A DNA stretch of 32,000 nt, taken from the NCBI GenBank assembly GCA_030668875.1, contig DAOVER010000005.1, positions 72,342 through 104,341 of the forward strand. Reading direction: 5' to 3'. Under the pieces are notes generated by a model, which saw only the letters and a list, made by a program, of their open reading frames with translations, searched no databases and had not been told where the DNA came from. The position numbers and the translations under genes are program-made. Shown piece after piece: positions 3,815 to 21,799 of this stretch (position 1 is its first letter; each line of letters starts with the position of its first letter). This DNA is from Candidatus Heimdallarchaeota archaeon (GTDB taxonomy: Archaea; Asgardarchaeota; Heimdallarchaeia; Heimdallarchaeales; Heimdallarchaeaceae).

Positions 3815-4354
3815 TTAATTTTCTGCTTTGTCAGAATCTGCTAATTCATCGAGATCAAGATCCTCATCTAATTCGAAATCGTCTTCGAAATCGTCACCAA
3901 TATCATCTTCAAGTAATTCGTATTCTTCCTCAAGCGATGTTGCGTCAAGCATATCACCAATTTCATCTATAGTTGCAGGTGGGTTCAAAACCTTAAGTCC
4001 CAAATCAGCTGCATTGTCTAGAATCATTTGCCTCTTACGAGCACCAACGGTGTGCTTAATCATAACTGCTTCAGTTTCTTTATCTATTTCTTCAAGTTCA
4101 TAGATATTAGCAACATGAACTACTTGATAACCCGAAGGATGCAGACCTCTGACAGCTTTTGGTCCCCGGTATCCTATGCTGACCATAGCAGGATAACCTT
4201 TGCGTTTTTCTTTCATTTTATTATCAATACCCTTAGGTTTACGCCAGCTTTTTTTTACTCTCTTGTAACGCCAGCTTTCTTGCCTAACAAAGTTAGGTCT
4301 ACGAGCACTGATTTCTTTACGCTTTTTTAGTAAACGTTTCTTATCGACTGTCAT
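3815..4354 (-). CDS. rpl32e: 50S ribosomal protein eL32 with acidic C-terminal tail
   Basis: FVRQESWRYKRV, WRKPKGID, GYRGPKAVRGLHPSG, VGARKR, KVLNP; followed by about 50 aa rich in D/E. ATG 4354 (GTG 4360 is an alternative). Confidence 0.96.
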   Translation of the reverse strand: MTVDKKRLLKKRKEISARRPNFVRQESWRYKRVKKSWRKPKGIDNKMKEKRKGYPAMVSIGYRGPKAVRGLHPSGYQVVHVANIYELEEIDKETEAVMIKHTVGARKRQMILDNAADLGLKVLNPPATIDEIGDMLDATSLEEEYELLEDDIGDDFEDDFELDEDLDLDELADSDKAEN

Positions 4355-4526: not shown

Positions 4527-5906
4527 ATGGAATCGAAGAAATTGGACTTATTTGATTCAATGTCTTCAAGAGTAAGTATCCCATTTAATCTTAAGGTAAT
4601 TTATACTTCTTTGTTTGCTATTCTTTATCTCATATTTCTAAATATACCCATTTTCGGCGTGCCTAGTTCAGGAGGAACTGATCCTTTTTTTGCTTTCAGA
4701 GTCATTATGGCATCTCAGAGAGGAAGTTTGGCAGAGTTTGGTATTTTTCCGCTTGTATACGCATCTTTCATTATGCATGTATTGGTGGGGTTAGGAATTT
4801 ACAAAATGGATTTCACACAAGCAGAGAAGAGAAAGAAGTTTTCGATTATAGTTACTATTCTGGGGTTGTTTTTCTCTCTCACATCATCTTTATGTTATGT
4901 AATTTTTGGTGCTTATGGAGAGATAAGTGTTGATCAAGGTTTTATAATCATTCCTCAATTATTGCTTGCTAGTACTCTTATAATAATAATTGACTATTTC
5001 ATGAGAAAAGGGTACGGATTGAGCTCTGGTGTAAGCTTGTTTATAGTAGTCAGTGTTTCACGAACTATCTTTGATGGTATGTTCAGTTTAAGTCAATTAA
5101 GAGTTGGAGGTTTTGATTGGTACAGAGGTTGTATTCTCGCATTCATTCAAGGTATCTTTAAAGAAGACCCAGATATACTGACACCACTCATCAGACCGGG
5201 TTTAACACCTGATTTTCTGGGATTCATTTTAGCAATTATAGTGTTTGGAATGACGATATTCTTTGTATCCTTTACCATAAAGAGACCATTCTATCAGAGA
5301 GATCAAATTACAAAATCATCGATGACAGCTCAATCATTATACAACTATTCTAATTCCGTAGTAATAACCAGTTCATTTTTTGCAAATATTTCCTTCGTTT
5401 CAAATATGATGTTTAATACATGGAGCTCATTTTCAACGGGATTTAGAAGTTTGTTGGTTAGTTTCTTCGGTAGATGGGAGACGATAGAAGGCACGAATCA
5501 GCTAGCTCCAGTTTCGGGGCTAGCGGCTTTTACAACCCCTCCATATGGGGTTGAACAAATTACACAACATCCGTGGAATACTTCGGTGTATTTTCTATTT
5601 ATGATTGTATATAGTATCCTTATGTCTAGATTATTAGTAAAAACATCAGGAAAGGAAAATGTAAGTATTCTAAAAGGAACAGACATATTTAATCAAGAAA
5701 AATATGAAGTCACTAATTTCCCTTTAGCATTATTAGCTGGTTTTTTCATGGGGTTTTTAGCAGGGTTTTTTAACATCATTTCTCCATTGGGAACAGGAGT
5801 AGGTATTCTAATAACAACGTGCATACTGAAACAACTCTTGGACATCATTTCCCATGAAAAATCCAAATGGAATGAATCAAGAAAAAATACGGAAATTAAT
5901 AAATAA
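4527..5906 (+). CDS. secY: SecY/Sec61-alpha homologue, divergent (probable paralogue)
   Basis: About 10 hydrophobic segments; NIPIFG (TM1), RVIMASQRGSLAEFGIFP (plug/TM2), KGYGLSSGVSLFI, FFANI, LGTGVGILIT (TM10). Several canonical motifs are altered (see findings). Confidence 0.88.
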   Translation: MESKKLDLFDSMSSRVSIPFNLKVIYTSLFAILYLIFLNIPIFGVPSSGGTDPFFAFRVIMASQRGSLAEFGIFPLVYASFIMHVLVGLGIYKMDFTQAEKRKKFSIIVTILGLFFSLTSSLCYVIFGAYGEISVDQGFIIIPQLLLASTLIIIIDYFMRKGYGLSSGVSLFIVVSVSRTIFDGMFSLSQLRVGGFDWYRGCILAFIQGIFKEDPDILTPLIRPGLTPDFLGFILAIIVFGMTIFFVSFTIKRPFYQRDQITKSSMTAQSLYNYSNSVVITSSFFANISFVSNMMFNTWSSFSTGFRSLLVSFFGRWETIEGTNQLAPVSGLAAFTTPPYGVEQITQHPWNTSVYFLFMIVYSILMSRLLVKTSGKENVSILKGTDIFNQEKYEVTNFPLALLAGFFMGFLAGFFNIISPLGTGVGILITTCILKQLLDIISHEKSKWNESRKNTEINK

Positions 5907-7661: not shown

Positions 7662-8416
7662 TTCTTATCACCTTCGTTACCAGCAATTGTTACACTTGGA
7701 GTATCATTGCCCACAATGAAAATATATCTGAACAGTGTAACGAAAATCTCACCATCAGGTGTCTTTATGGTCGCTGTTTTAGTTTTTTGTGTTCCATGAG
7801 AACTGATTTCTTCAATAGTTCCATGCTTACCCATCCACCTTCCACTAGTTACAATACCATAATTACCTATTTTCAATTCGTATTTTTCTAAAATCTTTTG
7901 ATCTGGTAAAGATATCTTAACTGTGTCATGTGTATGGTAAGGAACACTATCGCTTTCAGATTTCTGTAAGATGATGTTTCTACCATCATGGAGATTTAGT
8001 TGTGTTAGACCTCCTTTGAGTGTAGTCTTATTCTTAATTTGGCAGAGTTTAACTTTTGTTTCATCTTCCTTAATTGGAATTGTCCTTAGACCTTTCTTCG
8101 GAGTATATACTAATCTATAATGTTCTTTTATTTTTGGGAAGGAAATAACATCCATGAAACCTAGTGGGTATTTTCTGTTTGTTTTTATTTTTCCATCTAT
8201 GAGAACATTTCTTTCAACCAATATACGTTTAACTTCACTCATGTTTCGAGCTACTCGGAACATATCACGGAGCATAATGGCCATTGGAATACATTCATGT
8301 GCAGCATGAGGACCAGGAGAGGGTTTAACCGTATAAGTATTAGCTTTCTTTTCAATAGGTATATGTTTTGAAACAACGAATCTCTTCAGATGTCGTTTTC
8401 CACCGCCTTTTGTCAT
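7658..8416 (-). CDS. rps4e: 30S ribosomal protein eS4
   Basis: HLKR, PSPGPH, YPLGFMDVI, QLNLHDGRNI; ATGA overlaps with both neighbours. Confidence 0.97.
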   Translation of the reverse strand: MTKGGGKRHLKRFVVSKHIPIEKKANTYTVKPSPGPHAAHECIPMAIMLRDMFRVARNMSEVKRILVERNVLIDGKIKTNRKYPLGFMDVISFPKIKEHYRLVYTPKKGLRTIPIKEDETKVKLCQIKNKTTLKGGLTQLNLHDGRNIILQKSESDSVPYHTHDTVKISLPDQKILEKYELKIGNYGIVTSGRWMGKHGTIEEISSHGTQKTKTATIKTPDGEIFVTLFRYIFIVGNDTPSVTIAGNEGDKK

Positions 8417-9189
8417 ACTAATTCCTCCTTTTTATCTGTTTTCTCAGAAAGCAAATCTTCTGCGTTAGCACTCATAGTTTTTGCTGTACCAGGACCAATA
8501 CCAGGTACTTTTGAAAGCTCTTCTGAGGTTGCTTTGGCAATCTTATCAACAGTATCAAAACCATTTTCTTTGAGAAGCATTGCGGTTTTAGCACCTATGC
8601 CCTTAATCATAGATATGTCAAGGTCAGAAACTTTGGTCTCCTCCTTGGGAGCTGCTTCTACAACATCTTTAGGAGCATCAGTTTCGTCAAGATCTTCGAA
8701 TTCTTCAAAAATATCCTCTTCAAGATCTTCATCTTCTTCTTCGACATCAGATTCTTCTAAAGGCTCATCGAATTCATCAAATAGATCTTCAGTTAATTCT
8801 TCTTCAGTAAGTTCTTTTCTAGAACGTCTCTTAATGATCTCCCTTCTCTTTTTATCACGTAAATTCAGAGAAGTAATTATGATGTTGCTTGGATGAACAG
8901 GAAAACTAGAGACTGTACCATCAGCTTTTTCCTTACTATATCCTTCGATATGAACTGAATATTTCTGAGGTAAAACACGGATTACTTTACCTTTAATCTC
9001 TTGGTCTTCAGATTTAGCTCTGAAAACCAGTACTTTGTCATCTTTATGTACAGGAAGACGTCGAATACCATATTTATTTCTCAATTCACGTGAGAGAAGA
9101 GCAGTCATTTGACGATTGCGAAGATGTAAAGGAGCAGTATAATACCTCTTACGTTGTTTACGAGGTTGTTTTGTTTTTGTATATCTCAT
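8413..9189 (-). CDS. rpl24p: 50S ribosomal protein uL24 fused to an acidic linker and a C-terminal tandem helix-hairpin-helix domain
   Basis: aa 1-120 match uL24 (KQPRKQRK...APLH, ELRNKYGIRRLPV, VHPSNIIIT); aa 126-170 are D/E rich; aa 190-247 read ISMIKGIGAKTA...LSKVPGIGPGTA (two HhH motifs). Confidence 0.93.
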   Translation of the reverse strand: MRYTKTKQPRKQRKRYYTAPLHLRNRQMTALLSRELRNKYGIRRLPVHKDDKVLVFRAKSEDQEIKGKVIRVLPQKYSVHIEGYSKEKADGTVSSFPVHPSNIIITSLNLRDKKRREIIKRRSRKELTEEELTEDLFDEFDEPLEESDVEEEDEDLEEDIFEEFEDLDETDAPKDVVEAAPKEETKVSDLDISMIKGIGAKTAMLLKENGFDTVDKIAKATSEELSKVPGIGPGTAKTMSANAEDLLSEKTDKKEELV

Positions 9190-9200
9190 TTATATTTCAC

Positions 9201-9617
9201 CTATACTATTATTGAAGCTTGATGTGCAATCTTTGGCCACTTTTCGGCTGCCTCTTTAGCAATTGGTCCTCGAATTTCGCTTCCGAGAGGATCTCCTACT
9301 TCGTTGGTAAGAACAACAGCATTCTCTTCAAATTGTATCCAATCACCAGATCGTCTACGGTATGGAGAACGTTGTCGAACAACTACTGCTGGAAAAATTT
9401 GTTTTCTCCTTTGTGGAGTGCCTTGTTTAACAGAAACGACAACCATGTCAGAAACAGAGGCTTTTGGTACTCTGTTTAGTCTTCCTCTATAATTCTTTAC
9501 GGCAATTATTTGAACTATTCTAGCACCAGAATTATCTGCGCTACGAAGTCTTGTCCCTACAATTAAGCCCTTTGTAATATGAACTTGTGTTCGTCCTACG
9601 GATTTTCTTTTTGCCAT
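9201..9617 (-). CDS. rpl14: 50S ribosomal protein uL14
   Basis: ADNSGAR, RLNRVPKASVSD, AVVVRQR, FEENAVV, GPIAKEAAEKWPKIA. Confidence 0.97.
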   Translation of the reverse strand: MAKRKSVGRTQVHITKGLIVGTRLRSADNSGARIVQIIAVKNYRGRLNRVPKASVSDMVVVSVKQGTPQRRKQIFPAVVVRQRSPYRRRSGDWIQFEENAVVLTNEVGDPLGSEIRGPIAKEAAEKWPKIAHQASIIV

Positions 9618-9626
9618 GATACCACC

Positions 9627-9959
9627 CTAATTTAGTTTTTGAACCACAACAAAACTTACTGTTTTTGCAAGTGGTCTGCATTCTGCTGCTAAAACCATAT
9701 CGCCTTCTTTGACATTAAGGCAAGGGGGGTTGTGTGCAGAAATCTTTCCGTGAGCACGTTCATATCTACGAAACTTTTTCACATACTTCAAGAAATCTCT
9801 TCTAATTACCACGGTACGTCTCATTTTATCGGAAATAACTTTTCCAGTAAAAATACGACCCCTTGTTGGAAGTTGACCATGAAACGGACATCTTGGGTCA
9901 TCGCACTCAGTAGCGGGAGGTTCGACTCCTTGAATACCTACATTACGTACTTTACTCAT
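9627..9959 (-). CDS. rps17: 30S ribosomal protein uS17
   Basis: CDDPRCPFHG, RGRIFTGKV, KFRRYERAH, HNPPCL, AECRPLAKTVSFVV. ATG 9959 is preferred because of SD GAGGTGA 8 nt upstream (ORF track start is 9995). Confidence 0.96.
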   Translation of the reverse strand: MSKVRNVGIQGVEPPATECDDPRCPFHGQLPTRGRIFTGKVISDKMRRTVVIRRDFLKYVKKFRRYERAHGKISAHNPPCLNVKEGDMVLAAECRPLAKTVSFVVVQKLN

Positions 9960-10123
9960 TTGTTCTTTCACCTCGGTAATGCGTCTTGCACCCATGTTTC
10001 CCCATCGTTTAGAAAGGATAGAGGAACAATCTTGGCTCCTTAATCAAGGAGTAAGACGTCAATCACCTATAACTGATTCACAGTTATTTTTGTGATATTA
10101 GCAATCCTTTCCCCGTTATAATC

Positions 10124-10137
10124 TTTTTAATACTTTT
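10124..10137 (-). promoter_or_regulatory. BRE/TATA-like promoter of the uS17-uL6 segment
   Basis: The minus strand reads AAAAGTATTAAAAA, identical to 4410-4423. Confidence 0.6.
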
Positions 10138-10213
10138 CATTGTTAAGAGAAAAATATCGCAAGCGAGAAAAAGGGAAATTGTGGAAATGAAGTATCCTAA
10201 AGTATTGGTTAGG

Positions 10214-10948
10214 TTAACCAAAAAAGGTAACCATACCCGCTTGAATAAGGAGAAATGTAACTAGATAAAGCAGTGCAAGGAAACAAATGTAACCGATAAT
10301 AACAAGAGGATATCGAACCCAATATCTTATTTTTTTATAATCTTCAACTTTCCTATGGGTACTAAACAACTTTGGAAAAAACATTCCGGTATTTAGACGA
10401 TATTCAACATAATCATCACCAAGTTTCTTTATTAGTTTCCATTCTTCATAGTCTGACCAAAAAAATAAGATAATACTAAAAACAGACCAAGAGAGTATGT
10501 CGCCAAACCTGATGCCAAGATCAGTTGACCAAGGAACAAAGAGCGAAAGAGACAAGGAAATGAGAATTAGACCGAGATGTTGGGGGTGACGGATTAATCG
10601 ATAAGGTCCTTTTTTAACAAGACTCTCTTTTTTAAGGATAGAATTTGCTAAAGAAACAATACCATAAACAATGAGAACAAGACCAATTAGAAAAAGTAAG
10701 AATTCAAAAACGATTAACACGATGACCCCAGGAGTGTATTCAGTACCCTGTAAAACAATCCATGACCAACCCCAGTTTTCGGTATTAAAGAAGAAAACGA
10801 CTTTCCAAGAAAGTAGAGCAAATGGATAAAGAAAGAACATAGGAGCAAGTATAATGATGATGGTACGAAAATAGGACCAAACTATTGTTAACATATACAA
10901 AAATCTAGTTATGATATCACTGACTTGCTTCTTAATTGGTTCTGCCAT
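10214..10948 (-). CDS. Isoprenylcysteine carboxyl methyltransferase (ICMT/PEMT)-family membrane protein
   Basis: Multi-TM protein with LVKKGPYRLIRHPQHLG and EEWKLIKKLGDDYVEYRLNTGMFFP, matching the family's GPYxxxRHP and EE...YxxYxxx-P motifs. Start is ATG 10948 or the track start 10969. Confidence 0.8.
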   Translation of the reverse strand: MAEPIKKQVSDIITRFLYMLTIVWSYFRTIIIILAPMFFLYPFALLSWKVVFFFNTENWGWSWIVLQGTEYTPGVIVLIVFEFLLFLIGLVLIVYGIVSLANSILKKESLVKKGPYRLIRHPQHLGLILISLSLSLFVPWSTDLGIRFGDILSWSVFSIILFFWSDYEEWKLIKKLGDDYVEYRLNTGMFFPKLFSTHRKVEDYKKIRYWVRYPLVIIGYICFLALLYLVTFLLIQAGMVTFFG

Positions 10949-11081
10949 GATGTGATTCAATGATATCACATATTTATATTATTTTATAATAACTATAGTA
11001 TCTATAAAGTGGCGTAAATAACACCTTGTATGATAGCTGCAATATACAGATGAGGAGAGTGCCTGAAAAGAGAAGCGTAAG

Positions 11082-11097
11082 AAAAAACTTTTAAAAT
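11082..11097 (+). promoter_or_regulatory. BRE/TATA-like promoter of tRNA-Ile
   Basis: aaaaaacttttaaaa lies about 30 nt upstream of the tRNA 5' end. Confidence 0.5.
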
Positions 11098-11125
11098 AAA
11101 GATGCAACGGAACAAATGCTAATAA

Positions 11126-11234
11126 GGGCCATTAGCTCAGTTTGGTTAGAGCGTTCGGCTGATAGTTTAACCGCTAGAGAGCGTGTAATTTCGAAACCGA
11201 AAGGTCCGTGGTTCGAATCCGCGATGGCCCACCA
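11126..11234 (+). tRNA. tRNA-Ile(GAU) with a 31-nt intron (11165-11195) at position 37/38; CCA encoded
   Basis: Acceptor GGGCCAT/ATGGCCC, D-stem GCTC/GAGC, anticodon stem TTCGG/CCGAA, loop CT-GAT-A|A after intron removal, T-arm CGTGG-TTCGAAT-CCGCG, 3' ACCA. Confidence 0.95.
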
Positions 11235-11352
11235 TTCTTCTACTTTTAAGATTTATCACCACGAGATAGGATATTCAAACTGCTAGCGCGCAGAAGATTT
11301 TTATTCCCAAGAGGCATATTATCTATGAATAGATTATTAGTGAGGGAAATTA

Positions 11353-11916
11353 ATGAAAAAACCACTTTCCTTTGAAGAATTTGAAAAAACCAAAAGTAAA
11401 GATATGGCCAACGAATACAATAGATATAGTTGGGTTATCAATAAAGAAGAGGAATATTCTATCAGAGAGATATCAACTCACACAATAACTATGAATCTTT
11501 ATCATCAAGCTTCTTTGTGCTATATCGAAGGCCTATATCTATCATGTATTTTATCTATAGGGGCAACCATTGACCAATTTATTAGGCAATTAGTTGACCC
11601 GACATACAAACAAAGAAACTGGATAGAAAAAAGTAATCTAGATAATGCTGTAGAACAGAAATTTATTGCTCAAGAGCATGAAAAGGAAATTCATGAATTT
11701 AAATACTCTATAAGAGATCCTGTTGCACATCCTAAAGTTCCTGTATTTGGAATGCTAGGTTTACCTTATGACAAGAAAAAAGGTTACTGGGGAGGTGAAC
11801 ATGTTAAACCAGTTTTAACAGGACCTAAACCAAGTGCCGAAAGAGGACTTGAGCTATTTTGGAAAGTAGTAAATTATTATTTTTACATATACAAAAAAGG
11901 AGCACCATCACAATAG
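11353..11916 (+). CDS. Hypothetical protein, HEPN (DUF4145-like) fold candidate
   Basis: The helical pattern ASLCYIEGLYLSCILSIGATIDQFIR resembles the HEPN N-terminal helices; Rx4H motif R121-DPVA-H126. Confidence 0.6.
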   Translation: MKKPLSFEEFEKTKSKDMANEYNRYSWVINKEEEYSIREISTHTITMNLYHQASLCYIEGLYLSCILSIGATIDQFIRQLVDPTYKQRNWIEKSNLDNAVEQKFIAQEHEKEIHEFKYSIRDPVAHPKVPVFGMLGLPYDKKKGYWGGEHVKPVLTGPKPSAERGLELFWKVVNYYFYIYKKGAPSQ

Positions 11917-11966
11917 TATATGTAAAATATCTAGAACTAGGAAAATAATTTGATTGAGAGAATATA

Positions 11967-12644
11967 ATGGAAATAAGCAAAGTAATAGAAGAAATTAATA
12001 CCCTTTTGACAGTGTTATGCAAATATAACAAAGAAACAGATAAAGAACTTGCAAAAATTCAGTTCCCAAAAGGAGTTATCACATCTGTATACCAATATAA
12101 AATAGGAATGCCTTTCATAACAGATGAAGTTCTTCAAAGAAATTTAGCGTATCATTGTATGTTAGATGATGTTTTTACTTGGTTACTAAGACATTTTGCA
12201 TTTTATGCTGTAGTTAAGGAAATGGTAATTAAAATAGCAATTGCAAATATAGGAAATATGATGGAAGCAATTACTCAACATATAGTAAAACAATTTCAAA
12301 GTGATAAACCAGTGGTTTTGTTTTCAAATATAATAGCGATACTATCAAAACGAATCAACTGTTTAAGGAAAAGGAAAAAGGATAGGATAGGCACTCGTAA
12401 AGGACTCAGCAAACTAGTTAGTAATAAAATAATTACTAACAATTTAAAGAAGGAAGTTATGGGGGTATGGGGGGTAAGATGTAAACAGCATCTTGAATCT
12501 CTTAAGAAGAGAGAATTCAATATATACAATACAGATGATTATCGTGAAGCTATTAAAATATGGATAAATTTTAACAAACAGCTTTTTGAATCATGTGAAA
12601 AGGATTTGATAAAAGGCTCAGAAAATATTCTTCGAGGTTTTTAA
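11967..12644 (+). CDS. Hypothetical protein, HEPN-like candidate
   Basis: Long, AT-rich, predicted helical ORF; IGNMMEAIT helix and late R171-CKQ-H175 (Rx3H, one residue shorter than the canonical Rx4-6H). Confidence 0.5.
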   Translation: MEISKVIEEINTLLTVLCKYNKETDKELAKIQFPKGVITSVYQYKIGMPFITDEVLQRNLAYHCMLDDVFTWLLRHFAFYAVVKEMVIKIAIANIGNMMEAITQHIVKQFQSDKPVVLFSNIIAILSKRINCLRKRKKDRIGTRKGLSKLVSNKIITNNLKKEVMGVWGVRCKQHLESLKKREFNIYNTDDYREAIKIWINFNKQLFESCEKDLIKGSENILRGF

Positions 12645-12729
12645 GTCCTTTATAAAATAGTTTTTCCATCTCTATTTATGTTACTTACATCTTAGTGTAA
12701 GATAGAGCAAATAAGATACAAATAATCTA

Positions 12730-12951
12730 TTACTTGCTAGAGCTATTCTTTGATTTGTATGTGTATCTTTTTTTATTATCAATCATTTTGATTAATCGAT
12801 GAGTACCATCTATTTCTTTTACACTAGCTCTAGGTTTTTCCGTCATTAAATCCTCAAGATTCAATATTGCCATTCCCTTATCTTGTTTTGAAGCTTGTTT
12901 TGTTGCTATCTTTGGTATTGAATCTATTGCTCTTTCTATTTCATCTACCAT
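12730..12951 (-). CDS. Small hypothetical protein (73 aa)
   Basis: ATG start with a GTGAG SD-like site; fills an otherwise empty gap; no recognisable motif. Confidence 0.45.
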   Translation of the reverse strand: MVDEIERAIDSIPKIATKQASKQDKGMAILNLEDLMTEKPRASVKEIDGTHRLIKMIDNKKRYTYKSKNSSSK

Positions 12952-13078
12952 ATTCTCACAAACCCAATCTATACTAGTAGAACTTGTTTCTCTTTTGATT
13001 CATTGTATTACTTGGATATTCAATTTGAGATGCAGCAAGGGACAAAAATTTATTATAATTGTCTTTCCCTTTTTACTC

Positions 13079-13516
13079 ATGCCTCCTTCCAATGATTCTG
13101 AAGAACAAGTTAAAATTGGTGCAGATTTGTTATTGAAGGGTTGGGTGATGCTCAATCGCGCATGTCCTACCTGTTATTTACCACTTTACAAAAAACAAGA
13201 TAGAGTAGTTTGTGTGAAATGTAAGCAAGATTATGTTTTAGTTGATTCACCCTCGGAAATACCACAACAACAGAGAAATAATGCTCAACAGAAAGTGATC
13301 TCAGCTCCATATAGTAATTCTTCACCCCAATCCAATCTATCTTCACTTGACTTTTCGTCACTCCCTCCAGCATTGGTTGATACAGCTAAAATCTTACTTG
13401 AGAAAATAGAAATGCTCAATGTCCAATTAAAGGAAACAACTGATCCTAAAGAAATCACGGATATTTCTAACTCTATTCGTTCTCTTGTTGATTCTATTCG
13501 TTCTCTGACTTCTTAG
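13079..13516 (+). CDS. UPF0148 / Sjogren's syndrome-scleroderma autoantigen 1 (Auto_anti-p27) zinc-ribbon protein
   Basis: KIGADLLLKGWVMLNRACPTCYLPLY...CVKC matches the family's L(L)xGxxML...CxxC..PL...CxxC pattern. ATG 13079 is preferred over the track start 12995. Confidence 0.85.
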   Translation: MPPSNDSEEQVKIGADLLLKGWVMLNRACPTCYLPLYKKQDRVVCVKCKQDYVLVDSPSEIPQQQRNNAQQKVISAPYSNSSPQSNLSSLDFSSLPPALVDTAKILLEKIEMLNVQLKETTDPKEITDISNSIRSLVDSIRSLTS

Positions 13517-15962
13517 AATCTTGTTGAGGTTCAGGCCTTAGACTATCCAACTCCTCTTTTATTCCACTTAATTCTTTCTCTGCAGTTAGTTCATTATAAT
13601 CAGCATAGATAAAATCGATAATGTCAGAAGCAATTTTTTCTCCTACTCCTCTTATCTCAAAGAAATCTTCTCTGTTTGCAGTTACAATTCCTCTGAACGA
13701 CCCAAAGTGTTTCAGTAATCGTCGAGAGATTTTATGCTCAATGTGAGGTAGTGCAGAAACTGCTTCTTCTAGTTGGATTTGTAATCCCAAGCCCTTTCTT
13801 TTACCGATAGATAATCTTCTTTTTCTTTCAACTTGTTCTCTTTTTGCAAAAGCATATAGCATTTCAGCTGTTTCTCTTTGATTCTTCGTATGGATTATAG
13901 GAATTCGAAAATCAGTAATCAAAGAGGTTAGTGCTCCAGATAAAGCATGAGGATGCAAGGTTGAACCATGAAGATTAAACTCTCCTTCAATTAATATAAC
14001 TGGTTTAGCACAATTTTCTACAAGGATTTTTGTTTGAGAGAATAAACGTTTATCCATAATAGATTTAACAAAATCATCTTGTGTCTTTCGCTCTACTATA
14101 ACTTGGTCTGAACAGATATAATCGCCAATTTCTAATCTTTCGAAACCAAGGACAACATCTTTTCTCATTAATTCTTTAATAACTGTAGAGTTCCTTTCCC
14201 TACTATCACAAATTATTTTTATTTCCCCTTCATCTGCTAATTCTTTGCTCTCATCAACGTTCTCGTCTTCAATAACTGACAGTGCTTCTACCGCTTCCTC
14301 TTTTTCTTCAATTTCTGTTTTTTTGGATGATTCTGTTTCCGCTTCTTTCAGAAAATCAAGAATGCCTTTTTGTTGCTCCTTTTTCTTCATGGCTTTTACT
14401 GAGGGTGATTTTTCTAATTGTTTCACAATTTTCTTCATTTTCTGAGCCTGTCTCTTCGACGCCCACATATAAGCTACATCCCTAGTTCCTTCAGCTATCA
14501 ACATTATTACCTTGCCCTCCTTTCTTCTACCTGTACGACCTTTTCTCTGAATCAATCGTATAGCACTAGGAACGGCATCATAAAAAATAACAAGCTCACA
14601 TTCACCAATATCTAATCCTTCTTCGGCAACACTTGTTGAAACAAGAACATTGTATGTTCCATCACGGAATTCTTGCATAATTTCGATCTGTTTTTTCTGA
14701 GATAGCCCTTTTTCACCTTTCATTGATGATTGACCCACAAACCAGTGCGCATTTATTCCTTCAATTTTATTTATTTCTTTACTGATTATTTTGGCAGCGA
14801 CTCTGAAATGGGAGAAGATGAGTATTCTATTGTTAGCATTGTTTTCTACTTCTTCTTGGACTATTTCTTTCAATCGCTCTACTTTGGGATGAATTACCTT
14901 TTCCTCTTGTAATATGTGAACAGCTTCAACAACTTTTCTCATTTCATCAGAAAACATCATGTTCTTTAGAGCTCGACTCCCTCTTCCAAACTTAATTTCA
15001 TTAATATGACCTTCTAGATATTTATTAAGGGAAGGAACACCTTGAGTCTCTATTAATTCAATGGCGTGAGATATCCTAATCGAGTTCCCAACAAGAGCCA
15101 TTGCTTTAAAAAAATCTGTTCTATCTTCATCAGGAGAACTAGAAAATTTCTCATTTACTCTTCCCCGTAATTTCAATAATTCTCGTCTAGGATTATTTCT
15201 AGGAACTGCTGAGTTAATAATGCCGAGCTCCTTTAATCCTTCTAAGATAATTTTAAAGAAGTCATTTAGTGTCGAGATTATCACACTAAATGCTTCAGAA
15301 AGAGGGATGATTTCCCAATTTTCTTGAATCTCGTGGATATATTGTTTAACATCATCAGAGCTTTCATCTCTCATTTCCACATTGAAAGCCTTCAAATTTT
15401 CTTGTACCTCTTCAATCCTTTCAATATTAGCTCCTGGACTTGCAGTGATGCCAAGCAGAAGAGGATTTTTTGCCTTCAAGTTATATTGTTCAGCAATGAA
15501 AACGTAACTATGGTCACCAACAGCCTTATGAGCTTCATCTAGGCACATAAAAACGAAATCTTCAAGTTTTACTCTACGTTGGATGATATCGTTTTGAATA
15601 GTTTGAGGTGTACAGATGAATACTTGTCCCTCTTCCCAGATTTGTTTTCTTGTACTGGGATCAGTTTGACCAGAGATTTGTATGATTTTATCTGAATCAA
15701 TATTTAAAGAAGATCTAGTAGTTTGTTCATGTTGTTCAAGTAGTGGTTTAGTTGGAGCGCAAAATACAATTTTTCCCTCGGGAAATTTCTGAATGCGATG
15801 TGCAGCAATCATGATAAAAAGGATTGTTTTACCCAAACCCGTTGGTAAAATAACCAAAGAATTTTCCTTAACGCATGAAGCAAATAATGTCTGCTGGTAC
15901 AATCTCGCTTCAATTTTATCAGGTTTAATCAGAGGATGGTTAATATATTCTGCTTGATCCAT
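13494..15962 (-). CDS. hef: Hef (FANCM/XPF-like) DEAH helicase plus ERCC4 nuclease
   Basis: LPTGLGKT, DEAH, TASPG, STSVAEEGLDI, QRKGRTGR; C-terminal CDSRE, GDYI, VERKT and HhH. ATG 15962 (track start is TTG 15974). Confidence 0.95.
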   Translation of the reverse strand: MDQAEYINHPLIKPDKIEARLYQQTLFASCVKENSLVILPTGLGKTILFIMIAAHRIQKFPEGKIVFCAPTKPLLEQHEQTTRSSLNIDSDKIIQISGQTDPSTRKQIWEEGQVFICTPQTIQNDIIQRRVKLEDFVFMCLDEAHKAVGDHSYVFIAEQYNLKAKNPLLLGITASPGANIERIEEVQENLKAFNVEMRDESSDDVKQYIHEIQENWEIIPLSEAFSVIISTLNDFFKIILEGLKELGIINSAVPRNNPRRELLKLRGRVNEKFSSSPDEDRTDFFKAMALVGNSIRISHAIELIETQGVPSLNKYLEGHINEIKFGRGSRALKNMMFSDEMRKVVEAVHILQEEKVIHPKVERLKEIVQEEVENNANNRILIFSHFRVAAKIISKEINKIEGINAHWFVGQSSMKGEKGLSQKKQIEIMQEFRDGTYNVLVSTSVAEEGLDIGECELVIFYDAVPSAIRLIQRKGRTGRRKEGKVIMLIAEGTRDVAYMWASKRQAQKMKKIVKQLEKSPSVKAMKKKEQQKGILDFLKEAETESSKKTEIEEKEEAVEALSVIEDENVDESKELADEGEIKIICDSRERNSTVIKELMRKDVVLGFERLEIGDYICSDQVIVERKTQDDFVKSIMDKRLFSQTKILVENCAKPVILIEGEFNLHGSTLHPHALSGALTSLITDFRIPIIHTKNQRETAEMLYAFAKREQVERKRRLSIGKRKGLGLQIQLEEAVSALPHIEHKISRRLLKHFGSFRGIVTANREDFFEIRGVGEKIASDIIDFIYADYNELTAEKELSGIKEELDSLRPEPQQDSKKSENE

Positions 15963-16108
15963 TGGAAACCACAATCATGTCATCGTACAATGATGGTTTT
16001 TTTACTATTTAAATTTTAATTGTTCTTTGTAATATATTCTCTTTTCTTAATTATTTTGCACAATTCTTATTAGGGGGGTACATTGAGAAGGATTGTGATT
16101 GCTTAGAA

Positions 16109-17605
16109 ATGGACAATGTTACTAACTCTTTGGCTTCATCAGATGCGTCTCTGAAGGTTCCAATTGTTCAACTTGTTAGTTCAATAGGAATAGGCACTTT
16201 CATGGCAACATTAGATGCTTCGATTGTTTTTATTATCACTAATCGGATAAAAGAGTTCTATGTCGTAACTCCAAACATCGTTCAATGGATAGTGTTAGCT
16301 TATCTGTTAGTGATGATGGCCTTTACTGTTATTGCAGGGGACTTAGGAGACAAGTATAGTAATAAATTAGTCTTTCAGATTGGCATGGTAATTTTTGCTT
16401 TGGGGTCGCTGTTCTGTTACCTTGCTTTGAAATTTCTTGTTAATTCTATTCTTTGGTTGATTTTTGCTAGAATCATCCAAGCTTTTGGGGCAACAGGTAT
16501 GGTTAGCAACAGCATGGCTTTAATTACTATGTTCACCACTAAAAAGAATCGAGGAACAGCCGTAGGATTCAATAATCTACTCATATCAATTTCCGTAATA
16601 TTAGGTCCCGTGCTTGGAGCAGTTATTGGTCAATACTGGGAAGTAGGGGGGGTTTTTCTTATCAATGTTCCAATTGGAATTGTGGGTTTCATAATGGTAC
16701 ATAGGAATATACCTAAAACAAAACCTTTAGAGAAAGGCAGAAAAGCAGATTACATAGGATCTATACTGCTCGCAGCAGCTCTATCATCCTTAATATTGAG
16801 CGCCAGTTTATTTGTAGATATGGAATTATCAAGCTCAAATATCTGGGCAGCAGTTTGCCTAGGGATAGGTATTCTGCTTGTTCCTGTATTTCTTGTTTGG
16901 GAGAAAAGAGCTCCAAACCCATTAATTGATTTTAAATTGATTAAGAACAGGAAAATTTCAATCGGATTATTTACAGCTATAACAAATCATCAAGGGTATA
17001 TTGTTATTATATATCAGGTTAATCTTTTTCTATTATCATTAACTATTGTTCAAAATGAAATCCAAGCTGGTTTGATAATTGCAGGATTACCAGTAGGGAT
17101 GGCTATATTTGCAGCAATTTCAGGTAAACTGTCTAACACGATTGATGCTAGATATCTTTGTACTGTAGCCATGTTTTGTGTTGCTGTGTGTTTAGGGATA
17201 TTAGCTATATTCATTTCAGCAAGCGCCCCCACTTGGTTGTATGGGGTGATTTCCACAATAATTGGAGTTTGTATTGGGTTGTTCCAGTCTCCTAATGCTA
17301 ACTCTATTATGTCAGCAACGCCAAAAGAAAAACTAGGGATATCAAGTGGTCTTTTAGGGTTGACAACAAGCATAGCTATAAACTTAGGAATTGCTCTTTC
17401 AACCGCAATTTTAACATTTGTAACAACCTATCTTTCCAATTCAAATGGTTTGGATCCTTTTGCTTCAAGCAATTATGCAATAGGGTTGAAATGGGTTTTT
17501 GCAATATTTGCGGTAGTCACAGCTGCAGGAGCAATCTTATCCTATTTCAGAGGTCCAGAAGACAGAAAAGAAGAAACACTAACTTTGCGGATGGATACAA
17601 TATAG
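16109..17605 (+). CDS. MFS transporter, DHA2 (14-TMS drug:H+ antiporter)-like
   Basis: FMATLDASIV, GDLGDKYSNK (motif A), ARIIQAFGA, GPVLGAVI, FLINVPIGIVG, FQSPNANSIM. Confidence 0.9.
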   Translation: MDNVTNSLASSDASLKVPIVQLVSSIGIGTFMATLDASIVFIITNRIKEFYVVTPNIVQWIVLAYLLVMMAFTVIAGDLGDKYSNKLVFQIGMVIFALGSLFCYLALKFLVNSILWLIFARIIQAFGATGMVSNSMALITMFTTKKNRGTAVGFNNLLISISVILGPVLGAVIGQYWEVGGVFLINVPIGIVGFIMVHRNIPKTKPLEKGRKADYIGSILLAAALSSLILSASLFVDMELSSSNIWAAVCLGIGILLVPVFLVWEKRAPNPLIDFKLIKNRKISIGLFTAITNHQGYIVIIYQVNLFLLSLTIVQNEIQAGLIIAGLPVGMAIFAAISGKLSNTIDARYLCTVAMFCVAVCLGILAIFISASAPTWLYGVISTIIGVCIGLFQSPNANSIMSATPKEKLGISSGLLGLTTSIAINLGIALSTAILTFVTTYLSNSNGLDPFASSNYAIGLKWVFAIFAVVTAAGAILSYFRGPEDRKEETLTLRMDTI

Positions 17606-17757
17606 GCTTTATATTATTGTTCTAACTAAAGAAACTTAGCGAACTTCTTAATATTCGTGTAAATAAACCGTTATAAGAAGACGACAAATAATTTTGAGTT
17701 AGTAACCACTCAATTTTTAAATTAAGAACAATCGTCCATTACGTCAAGGTGACTTAA

Positions 17758-20226
17758 TTGAGTAAACGTGACCCTAAATTACCAGAGCGAACATATGACC
17801 CGCAGAAACAAGATATTAATCTATTTAATTCTTGGCAAAAAGAGAAGTTATTTCATTTCAATAAAGAATCGGGTAAGCCAATTTATAGCATTGATACTCC
17901 ACCCCCTTATGCAAATGCCCCGTGGCATATGGGAGGAGCGATTCATTATAGTGGCATCGATATGATTGCTCGTTATATGAGAATGAAAGGTCATGAAATT
18001 TTGTTTCCCATGTGCTTAGATCGCAATGGTTTGCCTATTGAAGTTCAAGCTGAAAAAGAATTCAGAGTTTCTATGCACGATATTTCACGTGAAGAGTTTC
18101 TAAGTATGTGCAAACAAATTCTAGACAGAGTAGGTGACATGATTTTGAACATCTGTAGGATTCTTGGATTTAGCAATAACTCATTTGAATGGGATGATGT
18201 GTATAAAACTGATCAGGAACAATATAGGGCACTCACACAGTCCACTTTCATTAAACTGTTTGAAGATAATCAAATCTATGAAGATAATAGACCAAATAAT
18301 TACTGTACTAGATGTAAAACTACCATAGCAGATAATGAAATTGATTATAGGTCTGGTTCCCATATTCTGTATGACATAAAGTTCAAAGTAAAAGAAACAG
18401 GAGAGGAATTAATTATCTCAACGTCTCGTCCGGAACTTATTCCAGCTATTGGTGTTGTAATTTATAACCCAAAGGATGATCGCTATAAACACTTAAAAGG
18501 CAAAACAGCTGTTACTCCAATTTTTGAGGATGAAGTACCAATCCTACCACATCATTATGCAAAAATGGAATTTGGAACTGGAATTTTAATGGTTTGCGCA
18601 TATGGTGATTCTGGAGATGTACACATATTCAGAGAACTTAAACTTAATCCAAGACCAATCATAAATACAGACGGGAAAATTACAGATGCTGTTCCTGAAT
18701 TTGAGGGATTAAAGGTTAAAGAGTCTAAAAAAGAGATAGTTAAACAATTGGAGGAACAAGGATTTATCCTTGAAAAAGTAGATACAGCTCATAATTTTCC
18801 AACATGCTCAAGATGTGGGAAGGATGTCGAATTTCTAGCTATGCCTGAATATTACTTGAAACAGGTAGAATATTTACCTAAACTAAAAGAATATGCTGAC
18901 ACAATGAAGTTTTTCCCAGACTTTATGAAGAAAGTATGGATGGATTGGCTAAATACAGTATCAATAGATTGGCCAATAAGTAGAAGAAGATACTATGGAA
19001 CAGAAGTACCAATCTGGTATTGTAAAAAATGTAATCATCCAAACCTTCCTGAACCTGGACCTTATTATCAACCTTGGAAAGACAATCCACCGTTCGATAC
19101 GTGTCAAAAATGTGGTTTTTCAGAGGGATTTGAAGGTGACAAACGAACTTTTGACACGTGGATGGATTCATCAATAAGTGAAATTTACATTAGTCTTCAT
19201 CCTCATAATAGAAGAGATGATGATTTATTTGATCAACTAAATTCCAGGGATTACATCTGTGACATTCGACCACAGGGCAAGGACATTGTAAGAACTTGGC
19301 TTCATTATACAATGTTAAGAGGTCATCAACTTTACGATAAACCCGCCTTTAACCATGCGTGGATTTCTGGACATGTTGTAAATAGAAAAGGAGAAAAAAT
19401 GTCTAAAAGCAAGGGTACTACAATTTATCCCGAAGAAATGATTGAGAAATATGGTGGAGATTCTGTTAGACTGTACGGTGCGATAGAGGCCAGTCATGGA
19501 TCTGACATTAGATTCAACCAACAACGGTTACAAGGTGTTTCTAAATTCATAAACAAGTTATATAATATCTCTAAATTTGTTAGTTCGTTTCCTTCAATCG
19601 ACAATGGTGAAATGGAATTACAACCAGCAGATGAATGGATTCTCTCAGAATTAGCACAAACAATCGCTGAATCTATTCAAGGGTATGATGTTTATGATTT
19701 CAATGTTCCAGCAAAAGTGTTGAGGAAATTTACAATTGACCTTTTTGCTTCTCAATACATTGAGATGGTGAAAGGAAGGGCATATAACAGAAATGAGGCC
19801 TTCAGTGAAGGAGAACAAAATGCAGCTCATTATACCTTGTATAAAATCTTGAATACAGTGATTAAAGCTTTTGCACCTATTGTTCCCTTTGTTACAGATT
19901 TCATTTATAGAGGACTAAATGATAAAACAGTTCATACAGAAGAATTTCCAGATCCTGAGAAAATAATCAAAGAAACAAAATTTACAGAGTTAACAGATAT
20001 ACTACTTGAATCAAATTCTCTGATTTGGAAATTTAAGAAGGATATGAAGTTGCCTCTTAACACACCAATCAAGAAAGCCATGCTACCCAAGAGTCTTGAA
20101 GTGTTTGTTTTAGATTTAAAAACAATGCATACAATTGAACTAATTAGTTCTGAAGAAAGTCAACTAGGTTCAGAGGCTAAAAAGTTCTTTTTAGCAAATG
20201 GAGAAGAGCTGATTATTTCTCTCTAA
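17758..20226 (+). CDS. valS: Valyl-tRNA synthetase (archaeal type)
   Basis: YSIDTPPPY, HIGH-equivalent HMGG, FGTGILMVCAYGD, DWPISRRRYYG, KMSKS; TTG start after SD GGTGA. Confidence 0.95.
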   Translation: MSKRDPKLPERTYDPQKQDINLFNSWQKEKLFHFNKESGKPIYSIDTPPPYANAPWHMGGAIHYSGIDMIARYMRMKGHEILFPMCLDRNGLPIEVQAEKEFRVSMHDISREEFLSMCKQILDRVGDMILNICRILGFSNNSFEWDDVYKTDQEQYRALTQSTFIKLFEDNQIYEDNRPNNYCTRCKTTIADNEIDYRSGSHILYDIKFKVKETGEELIISTSRPELIPAIGVVIYNPKDDRYKHLKGKTAVTPIFEDEVPILPHHYAKMEFGTGILMVCAYGDSGDVHIFRELKLNPRPIINTDGKITDAVPEFEGLKVKESKKEIVKQLEEQGFILEKVDTAHNFPTCSRCGKDVEFLAMPEYYLKQVEYLPKLKEYADTMKFFPDFMKKVWMDWLNTVSIDWPISRRRYYGTEVPIWYCKKCNHPNLPEPGPYYQPWKDNPPFDTCQKCGFSEGFEGDKRTFDTWMDSSISEIYISLHPHNRRDDDLFDQLNSRDYICDIRPQGKDIVRTWLHYTMLRGHQLYDKPAFNHAWISGHVVNRKGEKMSKSKGTTIYPEEMIEKYGGDSVRLYGAIEASHGSDIRFNQQRLQGVSKFINKLYNISKFVSSFPSIDNGEMELQPADEWILSELAQTIAESIQGYDVYDFNVPAKVLRKFTIDLFASQYIEMVKGRAYNRNEAFSEGEQNAAHYTLYKILNTVIKAFAPIVPFVTDFIYRGLNDKTVHTEEFPDPEKIIKETKFTELTDILLESNSLIWKFKKDMKLPLNTPIKKAMLPKSLEVFVLDLKTMHTIELISSEESQLGSEAKKFFLANGEELIISL

Positions 20227-20330
20227 CTCTTTCTTTCTCTGTTTCTCCCCATTTTTTGAAACCCACTCATCAAAGCAAATTGTTTTATACAAAAATATAT
20301 CCGTCGAATTACGGGACCATAAGGGTTTGT

Positions 20331-20340
20331 TAATATAATA
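20331..20340 (+). promoter_or_regulatory. TATA-like promoter of the uL22-rpp29 segment
   Basis: taatatataa lies about 90 nt upstream of uL22 and is followed by a hairpin at 20368-20398. Confidence 0.5.
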
Positions 20341-20427
20341 AGTGTGAAAAAACAAGCCTTAAAAATTATGCTCTTACCCGCTTATTAATCAAGAGCATGT
20401 ACAAGATAGCTGAAAGGAGAATTAAGA

Positions 20428-20892
20428 TTGCCAACTTACAAATATTCCATTCAAACAGATCCTGATAGATCAGCAAAAGCTTCAGCAAGAGATATTGATG
20501 TTAGTCCAAAAGCAACAAGGGAAATCTGCAATACAATTAAAGGTATGACAATTCACAAGACCATTGATTATCTTGAAGCAGTCATCGAGAAGAAATCTTC
20601 AGTTCCATATAGAAGACACAAGAGAAATGTTGGTCACAAAAGTGACTTAGTCGGTTGGGCTGCAGGTAGATACCCCGTTAAAGCTGCCAAAGAGATTTTG
20701 AAAATAGTGAAAAATCTAGAAAATAACGCTGAAAATAATCAACTTCAGTTAGACAAATGTGTAATTGTTCATGCTGTTTCATTACAAGGGTCAAGACAAC
20801 GAGCAATATTCTACCGAGCACACGGGAGATCTTCTCCAAAAACTAGGCAAAATATGCATATTGAATTAGTAGCTGAAGTAGCTGAGGTGTAA
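20428..20892 (+). CDS. rpl22: 50S ribosomal protein uL22
   Basis: VSPKATREICNTIKGM, VPYRRH, GRYPVKAA, RAHGRSSP, HIELV; TTG start after AAGGAG. Confidence 0.96.
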   Translation: MPTYKYSIQTDPDRSAKASARDIDVSPKATREICNTIKGMTIHKTIDYLEAVIEKKSSVPYRRHKRNVGHKSDLVGWAAGRYPVKAAKEILKIVKNLENNAENNQLQLDKCVIVHAVSLQGSRQRAIFYRAHGRSSPKTRQNMHIELVAEVAEV

Positions 20893-20896
20893 AATA

Positions 20897-21799
20897 ATGC
20901 CTACAACAAAAGATTACCTATTAAAAAAATACCAAAAAAACGCAATTGACGAATTTTTAGCATTTGAATTAAAGAATGCAGAATATGGAGGAGTTGAAGT
21001 TCGTAGAACTCCTTTGGGAGATCGCGTAATTTTACGTGTTGGGAGAGTGGGTTTAGCCATTGGTGGTCGTGGAAGGAATATTCATCGTATCACAGATGCA
21101 CTTAGAGAGAAATTTGAACTTGATAATCCTCAGATAGAAGTAACTGAAGTTGATAACCCTGAATTGGATGCAAGAATTATGGCATTCAGACTCGCTTCAT
21201 CTTTAGAAAGAGGAAGACATTTTCGCCGTAGCGCTCATGGTATTATTCGAAGAATTTTGGCTAGTGGAGCAAAAGGTGTTGAAATAAAGATTAGTGGAAA
21301 AGTTACAAGCCAAAGAGCAAGAGTAGAATCATTCAGAGCTGGTTTCGTAGCAAAAGCTGGTGATCCTGCAATGACATTTGTAGATGTAGGAAAAGCCACC
21401 GCCATAATCCGCAGAGGTTTAATTGGTGTTCGAATCAACATAATGAGAGGAGATGCCATCTTACCAGATGATATTGCAATTGTTGCAGAACCAACTTCAA
21501 CCTCAATGATAGTTGACACTGGATCAGAAGTTGAGCCAGATATAATTGAAGAAATCAGCGAAGAGGCAATCGAAGAGCTTGATGAATATCCTGAAATAGA
21601 AGAAAAAATCATAGCTGAAATTAAAAAAGAAGAGAAAATCAAATCTGATGAATTTGGAGAACTTGACGAAGTTGATAAGAAAACAAAACCAAAAGACAAA
21701 ACTAAAACCAAAAACAAGGGCGATAAAAAAGTCAAAACCAAAGACGAAAACGACAAGAAAGCAAAAGACAAAAAAGCTAAAAAGAAGAAAGAGGAGTGA
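20897..21799 (+). CDS. rps3: 30S ribosomal protein uS3 with a long acidic-then-basic C-terminal extension
   Basis: IDEFL, RTPLG, IGGRGRNI (KH domain), GAKGVEIKISGK, LPDDI; about 100-aa tail. Confidence 0.96.
   Translation: MPTTKDYLLKKYQKNAIDEFLAFELKNAEYGGVEVRRTPLGDRVILRVGRVGLAIGGRGRNIHRITDALREKFELDNPQIEVTEVDNPELDARIMAFRLASSLERGRHFRRSAHGIIRRILASGAKGVEIKISGKVTSQRARVESFRAGFVAKAGDPAMTFVDVGKATAIIRRGLIGVRINIMRGDAILPDDIAIVAEPTSTSMIVDTGSEVEPDIIEEISEEAIEELDEYPEIEEKIIAEIKKEEKIKSDEFGELDEVDKKTKPKDKTKTKNKGDKKVKTKDENDKKAKDKKAKKKKEE

Follow-up and report, generated by a model that had tools for sequence, protein, structure and literature searches.

The window analysed here, a stretch of 32,000 nucleotides from the Candidatus Heimdallarchaeota archaeon assembly GCA_030668875.1 (contig DAOVER010000005.1, positions 72,342 to 104,341), contains a gene for ribosomal protein uL24 which is extended by an acidic segment and a tandem HhH domain. 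The open reading frame (9189..8413, minus strand) encodes 258 amino acids, is free of internal stops when the frame is checked and is located between the genes for uL14 and eS4. Two Pfam families match the protein above their cut-offs, Ribosomal_L26 (PF16906) at residues 6-122 (E 9e-30; 103 bits against a cut-off of 28.8, profile positions 1-82 of 82) and HHH_5 (PF14520) at residues 191-239 (E 2e-13; 51 bits against a cut-off of 27). The fused protein is the only PF16906 match in the source genome, which is 92% complete, and is therefore present as a single copy. The features of the locus are as follows.

8818..9189, minus strand: uL24 core (residues 1-124)
8983..9048, minus strand: atypical KOW turn (residues 48-69)
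8674..8817, minus strand: acidic segment, predicted to be disordered (residues 125-172; 60% D/E, 2% K/R)
8626..8673, minus strand: short variable spacer (residues 173-188)
8449..8625, minus strand: (HhH)2 domain of the HHH_5/RadA-NTD fold (residues 189-247)
8607-8581, minus strand: hairpin 1 motif, IKGIGAKTA
8508-8482, minus strand: hairpin 2 motif, VPGIGPGTA
8413..8448, minus strand: C-terminal residues, the KEE codons of which carry a Shine-Dalgarno-like sequence, AAGGAGG, at 8430-8424
4527..5906, plus strand: second SecY, between uL6 and eL32

An earlier note, made from the sequence alone, had described about 45 D/E-rich residues after the uL24 core at 8680-8814 and a two-HhH module at 8449-8622; the former lie inside the acidic segment as measured (8817-8674), and the latter spans about 8625-8449. 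The KOW turn, also described there as atypical, does depart from that of Thermococcales uL24, with an insertion of 2 residues and loss of the usual glycines. At its 3' end the uL24 stop codon overlaps the eS4 start (ATGA), and this overlap, together with the Shine-Dalgarno-like sequence, is a layout common to fused and unfused uL24 genes. As both elements occupy the last codons of uL24, insertions would be confined to positions upstream of them.

The fusion is real. A 7.3-kb Logan contig spans positions 8200-9400 with 0 differences and 0 gaps, although the run behind it may be the source of the assembly itself and so would give no independent support. Independent support comes from 22 other protein clusters (90% identity; NCBI, JGI, ENA and Logan) in which L26 and HHH_5 are found in one chain. 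The proposal that the gene is an assembly chimera, or a read-through of two genes, has nothing specific in its favour beyond a similar uS4 copy on the same contig, and it is refuted by the spanning contig, which crosses the gene unchanged, by the occurrence of the fusion in those clusters from four sources, and by the uL24 and uS4 HhH copies, which differ at 38 of 186 bases. The check for a stop, frameshift or assembly artefact that the earlier note had called for thus came out in favour of an intact gene. In the one metatranscriptome compared, contigs from a relative cover only 9020-9398, the linker lying outside this coverage, and a search of the gene for promoters and terminators brought up no signal above chance, its sigma-70 model being unfit for archaea.

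In the AlphaFold model of the protein the core and the last 60 residues are folded and the linker between them is of low confidence, with pLDDT below 50 over most of residues 140-188; the HhH domain is modelled as four helices with a pLDDT of 86. Its best fold match is to the RadA/Rad51 N-terminal domains (1XU4, TM 0.85, rmsd 0.7) and its best sequence match is to RadA (1PZN, E 3e-5). The likeness to the RadA N-terminal/HHH_5 domain stated in the earlier note is therefore borne out by profile and fold alike, and the HHH_5 match, the low-pLDDT linker and the RadA-type fold agree with the description of a flexibly tethered arm on a ribosomal protein. No Pfam match to a RecA-fold ATPase was found in the 258 residues.

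The three unusual features of this uL24 differ in their taxonomic range. The genus is represented by 24 species, of which 22 can be scored for the uL24 HhH (the gene is cut in G006 and was not found in G010). The HhH is present in six of these 22 (G000, the source genome, and G016, G021, G014, G003 and G020) and missing from the other 16, so that it is not routine across the lineage. Outside the genus no uL24 HhH was found among 150 genomes drawn across the phylum, where the open frames of the uL24 matches are too short for the domain, apart from five long ones (G117, G118, G119, G042, G051), which were cut out and carry no HhH. Every complete uL24 frame examined has the acidic tail, whether it comes from this genus, from two further genera of the family or from the order's other families. 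Fused and unfused uL24 alike show the odd KOW turn throughout the family; in the remaining families of the order the turn is canonical. By their distribution the three oddities are separable, and the KOW turn and the acidic tail are older than the HhH and not tied to it. Two further observations concern such tails: G008 (L020) and P0034 have Pro/Lys/Ala tandem repeats after the acidic part of uL24, without HhH, and the eL32 of the window ends in some 50 residues of which 51% are D/E (3815-3970, minus strand), a second acidic tail in the operon.

The source genome contains ten HHH_5 matches. By far the closest to the uL24 HhH, agreeing at 79% of residues, is the C-terminus of ribosomal protein uS4, which lies 29 kb from uL24 and outside the window.

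G000:C68:51608-51793: uS4 C-terminal HhH

The uS4 gene itself (L001:4520-5815 = G000:C68:50519-51814, plus strand) encodes a protein with a leash of 186 amino acids in Pro/Lys/Glu tandem repeats and the sister HhH, an arrangement found nearly genus-wide. Between uL24 and the organism's own uS4, 174 of 218 bases are identical (80%) and the likeness starts in the last residues of the linker; the last residues of the uL24 spacer match the end of the uS4 linker and, in some relatives, occur as repeats. In the genus, 11 uS4 frames extend far enough to reach the HhH and carry it; most of the other uS4 frames are cut in the repeat linker, with matching HhH pieces at contig ends. In the other families of the order uS4 is without HhH.

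On a tree of the uL24 core the fused proteins form three groups, A, B and C, and on a concatenated ribosomal-protein tree of 991 columns the fused genomes form two separate clades, the third group being found among metagenome proteins. G003 is placed inside this Heimdall genus by the ribosomal-protein tree. The HhH tree, which rests on 62 columns only, pairs each of the uL24 groups A, B and C with the uS4 of its own lineage (supports 80/93, 91/96 and 98/87), and a single clade of uL24 HhH domains is rejected (AU p=0.005). In group C the HhH sits just ahead of terminal residues that are also found in the unfused uL24 of G004. The gene order around uL24 varies as well: in the window (9627-21799) the S10-spc cluster is split, with uL22 and uS3 (20428-21799, plus strand) facing away from uS17-uL14-uL24 (minus strand) across about 10 kb, and the cluster is contiguous in groups B and C.

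A possible trace of later exchange is seen in G003, where 77 consecutive bases are identical between uL24 and uS4, while the same span differs at 14 sites in G014 and at 12 in G020; under a simulation of uniformly distributed differences such a tract has a p of 3e-4 or less. The tract would fit gene conversion, with assembly collapse as a possible alternative. No recent conversion tract was found in group A (G000, G021 and P0011/P0084, the latter two on one contig), where the longest identical runs are of 16-20 bases and the uL24 and uS4 copies differ at half of the four-fold sites; the exchange there is consequently old. By the trees and the G003 tract, the uL24 HhH either was copied from rps4 or is being kept similar to it. 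Both repeated gain and a single gain followed by conversion and losses are consistent with the data.

Further HhH proteins are encoded in these genomes. A protein of 276 amino acids (L002:4982-5812, minus strand) has an N-terminal HhH, a basic linker and a divergent eL33-like C-terminus, and proteins resembling it are encoded in further families of the order; its eL33-like identity is drawn from weak PDB matches (E 0.07, all four of the top four) and from the JGI name of a homologue, and Pfam L35Ae does not match it. About 6 kb away lies a gene for 468 amino acids (L002:11932-13338, minus strand), in which an unassigned N-terminus is followed by a low-complexity stretch and then, at the C-terminus, by an HhH; throughout the family there are HhH proteins of similar size, a part of them with two modules. 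In a frame of 242 amino acids (L003:4461-5186, minus strand) the N-terminal part is helical and the HhH is C-terminal; many genomes of this genus have HhH frames of 227-260 amino acids. The RNA polymerase subunit Rpo6 (PF01192) carries a C-terminal HHH_5 (L084:253-825, plus strand) in a genome that belongs to another family of the order, and P0117 is an eL32 preceded by two or more HHH_5 domains at its N-terminus. P0166 was rejected as a ribosomal S13 fusion, since its S13 match overlaps its HhH repeats. A RadA-like frame with two HhH-type N-terminal modules is present in the source genome (G000:C68:39337-40704, plus strand), the ordinary RadA being on C32.

Estimates of dN/dS, which are rough because they come from four group-A genes in pairs that are not independent, are 0.18 for the uL24 core, 0.15 for the acidic segment, 0.72 for the spacer, 0.12 for the HhH and about 1 for the last 11 residues. 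None of the fused proteins aligned has a truncated or decayed HhH. By these measures the uL24 HhH is under purifying selection and is maintained rather than decaying. It has to be considered whether the domain is a near-neutral passenger, the uL24 tail being a tolerant insertion hot spot in which a harmless folded appendage stays. The 16 scorable genomes without HhH would agree with this, as would the relatives G008 and P0034, which have Pro/Lys repeats in the same tail and no HhH; the low ratio for the HhH, the lack of decayed copies and the recurrence of the domain on the same host gene in three lineages speak against it, and we regard a passenger as quite unlikely.

uL24 rims the peptide exit tunnel, and the earlier note had suggested an arm co-adapted with the divergent SecY encoded in the same locus. 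The second SecY after uL6 and the fusion do occur together in G000, G016 and L104, and the P0017 contig probably has both. In L104, a group-B contig, this divergent SecY follows directly after uL6 (L104:8270-9660) but is split by a frameshift; it is 48% identical to canonical SecY and 39% to the paralogue of the window. However, the fusion is found without a paralogue at that site in G021 and at the loci of P0005, P0008 and P0011 (also listed as L098/L099, L102 and L103), whereas in G004 and G018 uL24 is unfused and a second SecY is encoded elsewhere. One SecY each was found in G003, G014, G020 and G021, all of them fused, in genomes that are 72-88% complete. In the gene contents compared, the fusion neither requires the SecY paralogue nor follows from its presence. 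A like module is also carried by uS4, on the other ribosomal subunit, and by the eL33-like protein of the same genome, which weakens any role specific to the exit tunnel. The distribution of the genes thus largely refutes the idea that an exit-tunnel arm co-adapted with either the divergent SecY or SRP, and we hold it to be highly improbable.

HhH hairpins of the GhGxKT type bind the phosphate backbone of nucleic acids without sequence preference. Hairpin 1 of the uL24 HhH keeps this motif as GIGxKT and aligns with the HhH of polymerase X, while hairpin 2 is without its lysine. Residues G197, G199, K201, T202, G230 and G232 are invariant in all 53 uL24 and uS4 rows of the alignment, G230 being the equivalent of RadA Gly52. 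In SsoRadA, K27 and K60 of the basic arch are both important for dsDNA binding (PMC1964548). Their equivalents in the uL24 HhH are L205 and T238, groups B and C keeping that of K60 only, and the domain is slightly acidic overall (7 K/R, 9 D/E). For these reasons strong, RadA-like DNA binding is unlikely, and weak binding of a nucleic-acid backbone, by analogy with the motif, is our best guess for its function. The coupling to RNA polymerase or DNA put forward in the earlier note would have to work without these RadA lysines.

The main competing explanation holds that the HhH is a protein-docking module for a shared partner, such as RNA polymerase, a histone-like tail or another factor, with uL24 as a second docking site. 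The fold also matches NusA AR2 bound to the RNAP alpha-CTD (2JZB; Z 9.3, rmsd 1.6, 60 aligned residues) and the N-terminal lobe of RAD51 in complex with the H4 tail (8XBW), and the net acidity, the lost RadA lysines and a methionine that is invariant in the uL24 and uS4 rows where RadA has glutamate would all suit such a role. Set against this is the invariant hairpin 1, whose GxGxKT motif is typical of backbone binding; any partner is putative, and likeness of fold is no proof of function. Docking is an unlikely explanation, if a serious one. A complex prediction for the uL24 HhH with the uS4 HhH scored 0.00, which gives no answer and is weighed neither way.

Compared with known systems, the core of about 120 amino acids matches archaeal uL24/eukaryotic L26 end to end (PF16906; PDB 6SKF chain BX, 4V6U; E 3e-35), and the gene is a single copy in the usual uL14-uL24-eS4-uL5 order. 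Solved archaeal chains, however, are 118-128 amino acids long; the fused protein adds about 135, and its KOW turn is altered. Haloarchaeal eL32 (Haloarcula marismortui L32e, 1JJ2 chain X and 1S72 chain Y; 9L94 chain Q) is the closest precedent: there too a single HHH_5-type domain (profile E 1e-10 and 9e-8) is appended to a ribosomal protein, and in 9L94 this domain also is without the lysine equivalent to K27. The two systems differ in the host protein and in the position of the HhH, which in eL32 is N-terminal rather than C-terminal. The RadA/Rad51 N-terminal (HhH)2 is the best match in sequence and fold and shares the G52 equivalent, but uL24 is without the ATPase domain and has Leu and Thr for K27 and K60. 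NusA AR1/AR2 have the same fold (2JZB; 1U9L, Z 7.5) and are likewise appended and net acidic, but with 18-22% identity, and they are located on a transcription factor and bind proteins. The uS4-HhH of the genus is the donor or exchange partner of the uL24 module; its leash is a basic Pro/Lys repeat of 65-186 amino acids whereas that of uL24 is acidic, and it is present in nearly all of the genus whereas the uL24 HhH is confined to a minority. In the literature searched, which covers few subscription papers, no description was found of a uL24-HhH, of HhH with Asgard ribosomal proteins or of module exchange between ribosomal genes, nor was a paper found on the function of the haloarchaeal eL32 HhH domain or on the uS4-HhH of this genus. 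The uL24-HhH exists and is maintained by selection, and it appears to be undescribed; it varies a known design and is optional within the genus.

The explanation we favour, to which we give an even chance of being right as a whole, is that the uL24 arm duplicates a surface module with which uS4 already equips these ribosomes. The data show that the acidic tail of uL24, itself older, received the 3' end of rps4, comprising the linker end and the HhH, upstream of the eS4 ribosome-binding site; this transfer took place either separately in about three lineages, or once, followed by homogenisation through gene conversion and several losses. uL24 would assemble normally into the ribosome, and a leash of roughly 65 residues would let the HhH reach well beyond the exit tunnel. 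As the contour of such a leash is, by our own estimate, about the width of the ribosome, the HhH would not be held at the tunnel exit. The intact hairpin 1 would then grip the backbone of duplex nucleic acid weakly and without sequence preference. As ligand, RNA, of a neighbouring ribosome or a structured mRNA, would be likelier than chromosomal DNA, on the admittedly weak argument that ribosome and DNA signals are apart in such cells: in Loki- and Heimdallarchaeota the two lie 50-280 nm from each other (PMC8776820). The presence of the module on uS4, uL24 and the eL33-like protein in one genome suggests that copy number counts for more than site; several HhH arms per ribosome would add avidity, the attachment site would matter little and the uL24 copy would be optional. 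Against this explanation stand the net acidity of the domain, the replacement of K27 by Leu and K60 by Thr, the hairpin 2 without Lys, and the binding of proteins by the same fold in NusA AR2 and the RAD51 N-terminal lobe; furthermore, the backbone grip is read from a motif and the HhH trees have 62 columns only. Most likely the uL24 arm gives the ribosome surface one more general-purpose grip and is no special partner of the protein-export channel.

A broader reading, which we consider unlikely, is that mobile HhH hooks, homogenised by gene conversion, move among the genes for both subunits of Asgard ribosomes and tie ribosomes to each other, to RNA polymerase or to the nucleoid edge, helping to set ribosome placement relative to DNA, with the uL24 copy as a spread in progress. 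If true, it would bear on ribosome placement in the lineage closest to eukaryotes.

To our knowledge, core ribosomal proteins seldom acquire complete folded domains. In this case a domain has passed between small- and large-subunit genes, apparently more than once within a genus and with a sign of later exchange. The uL24 copy alone looks optional and redundant with that of uS4, and natural pairs with and without it, such as G000 and G002, offer a means of probing the function of an HhH arm on archaeal ribosomes. The ligand of these arms would bear on the organisation of Loki- and Heimdallarchaeota cells.
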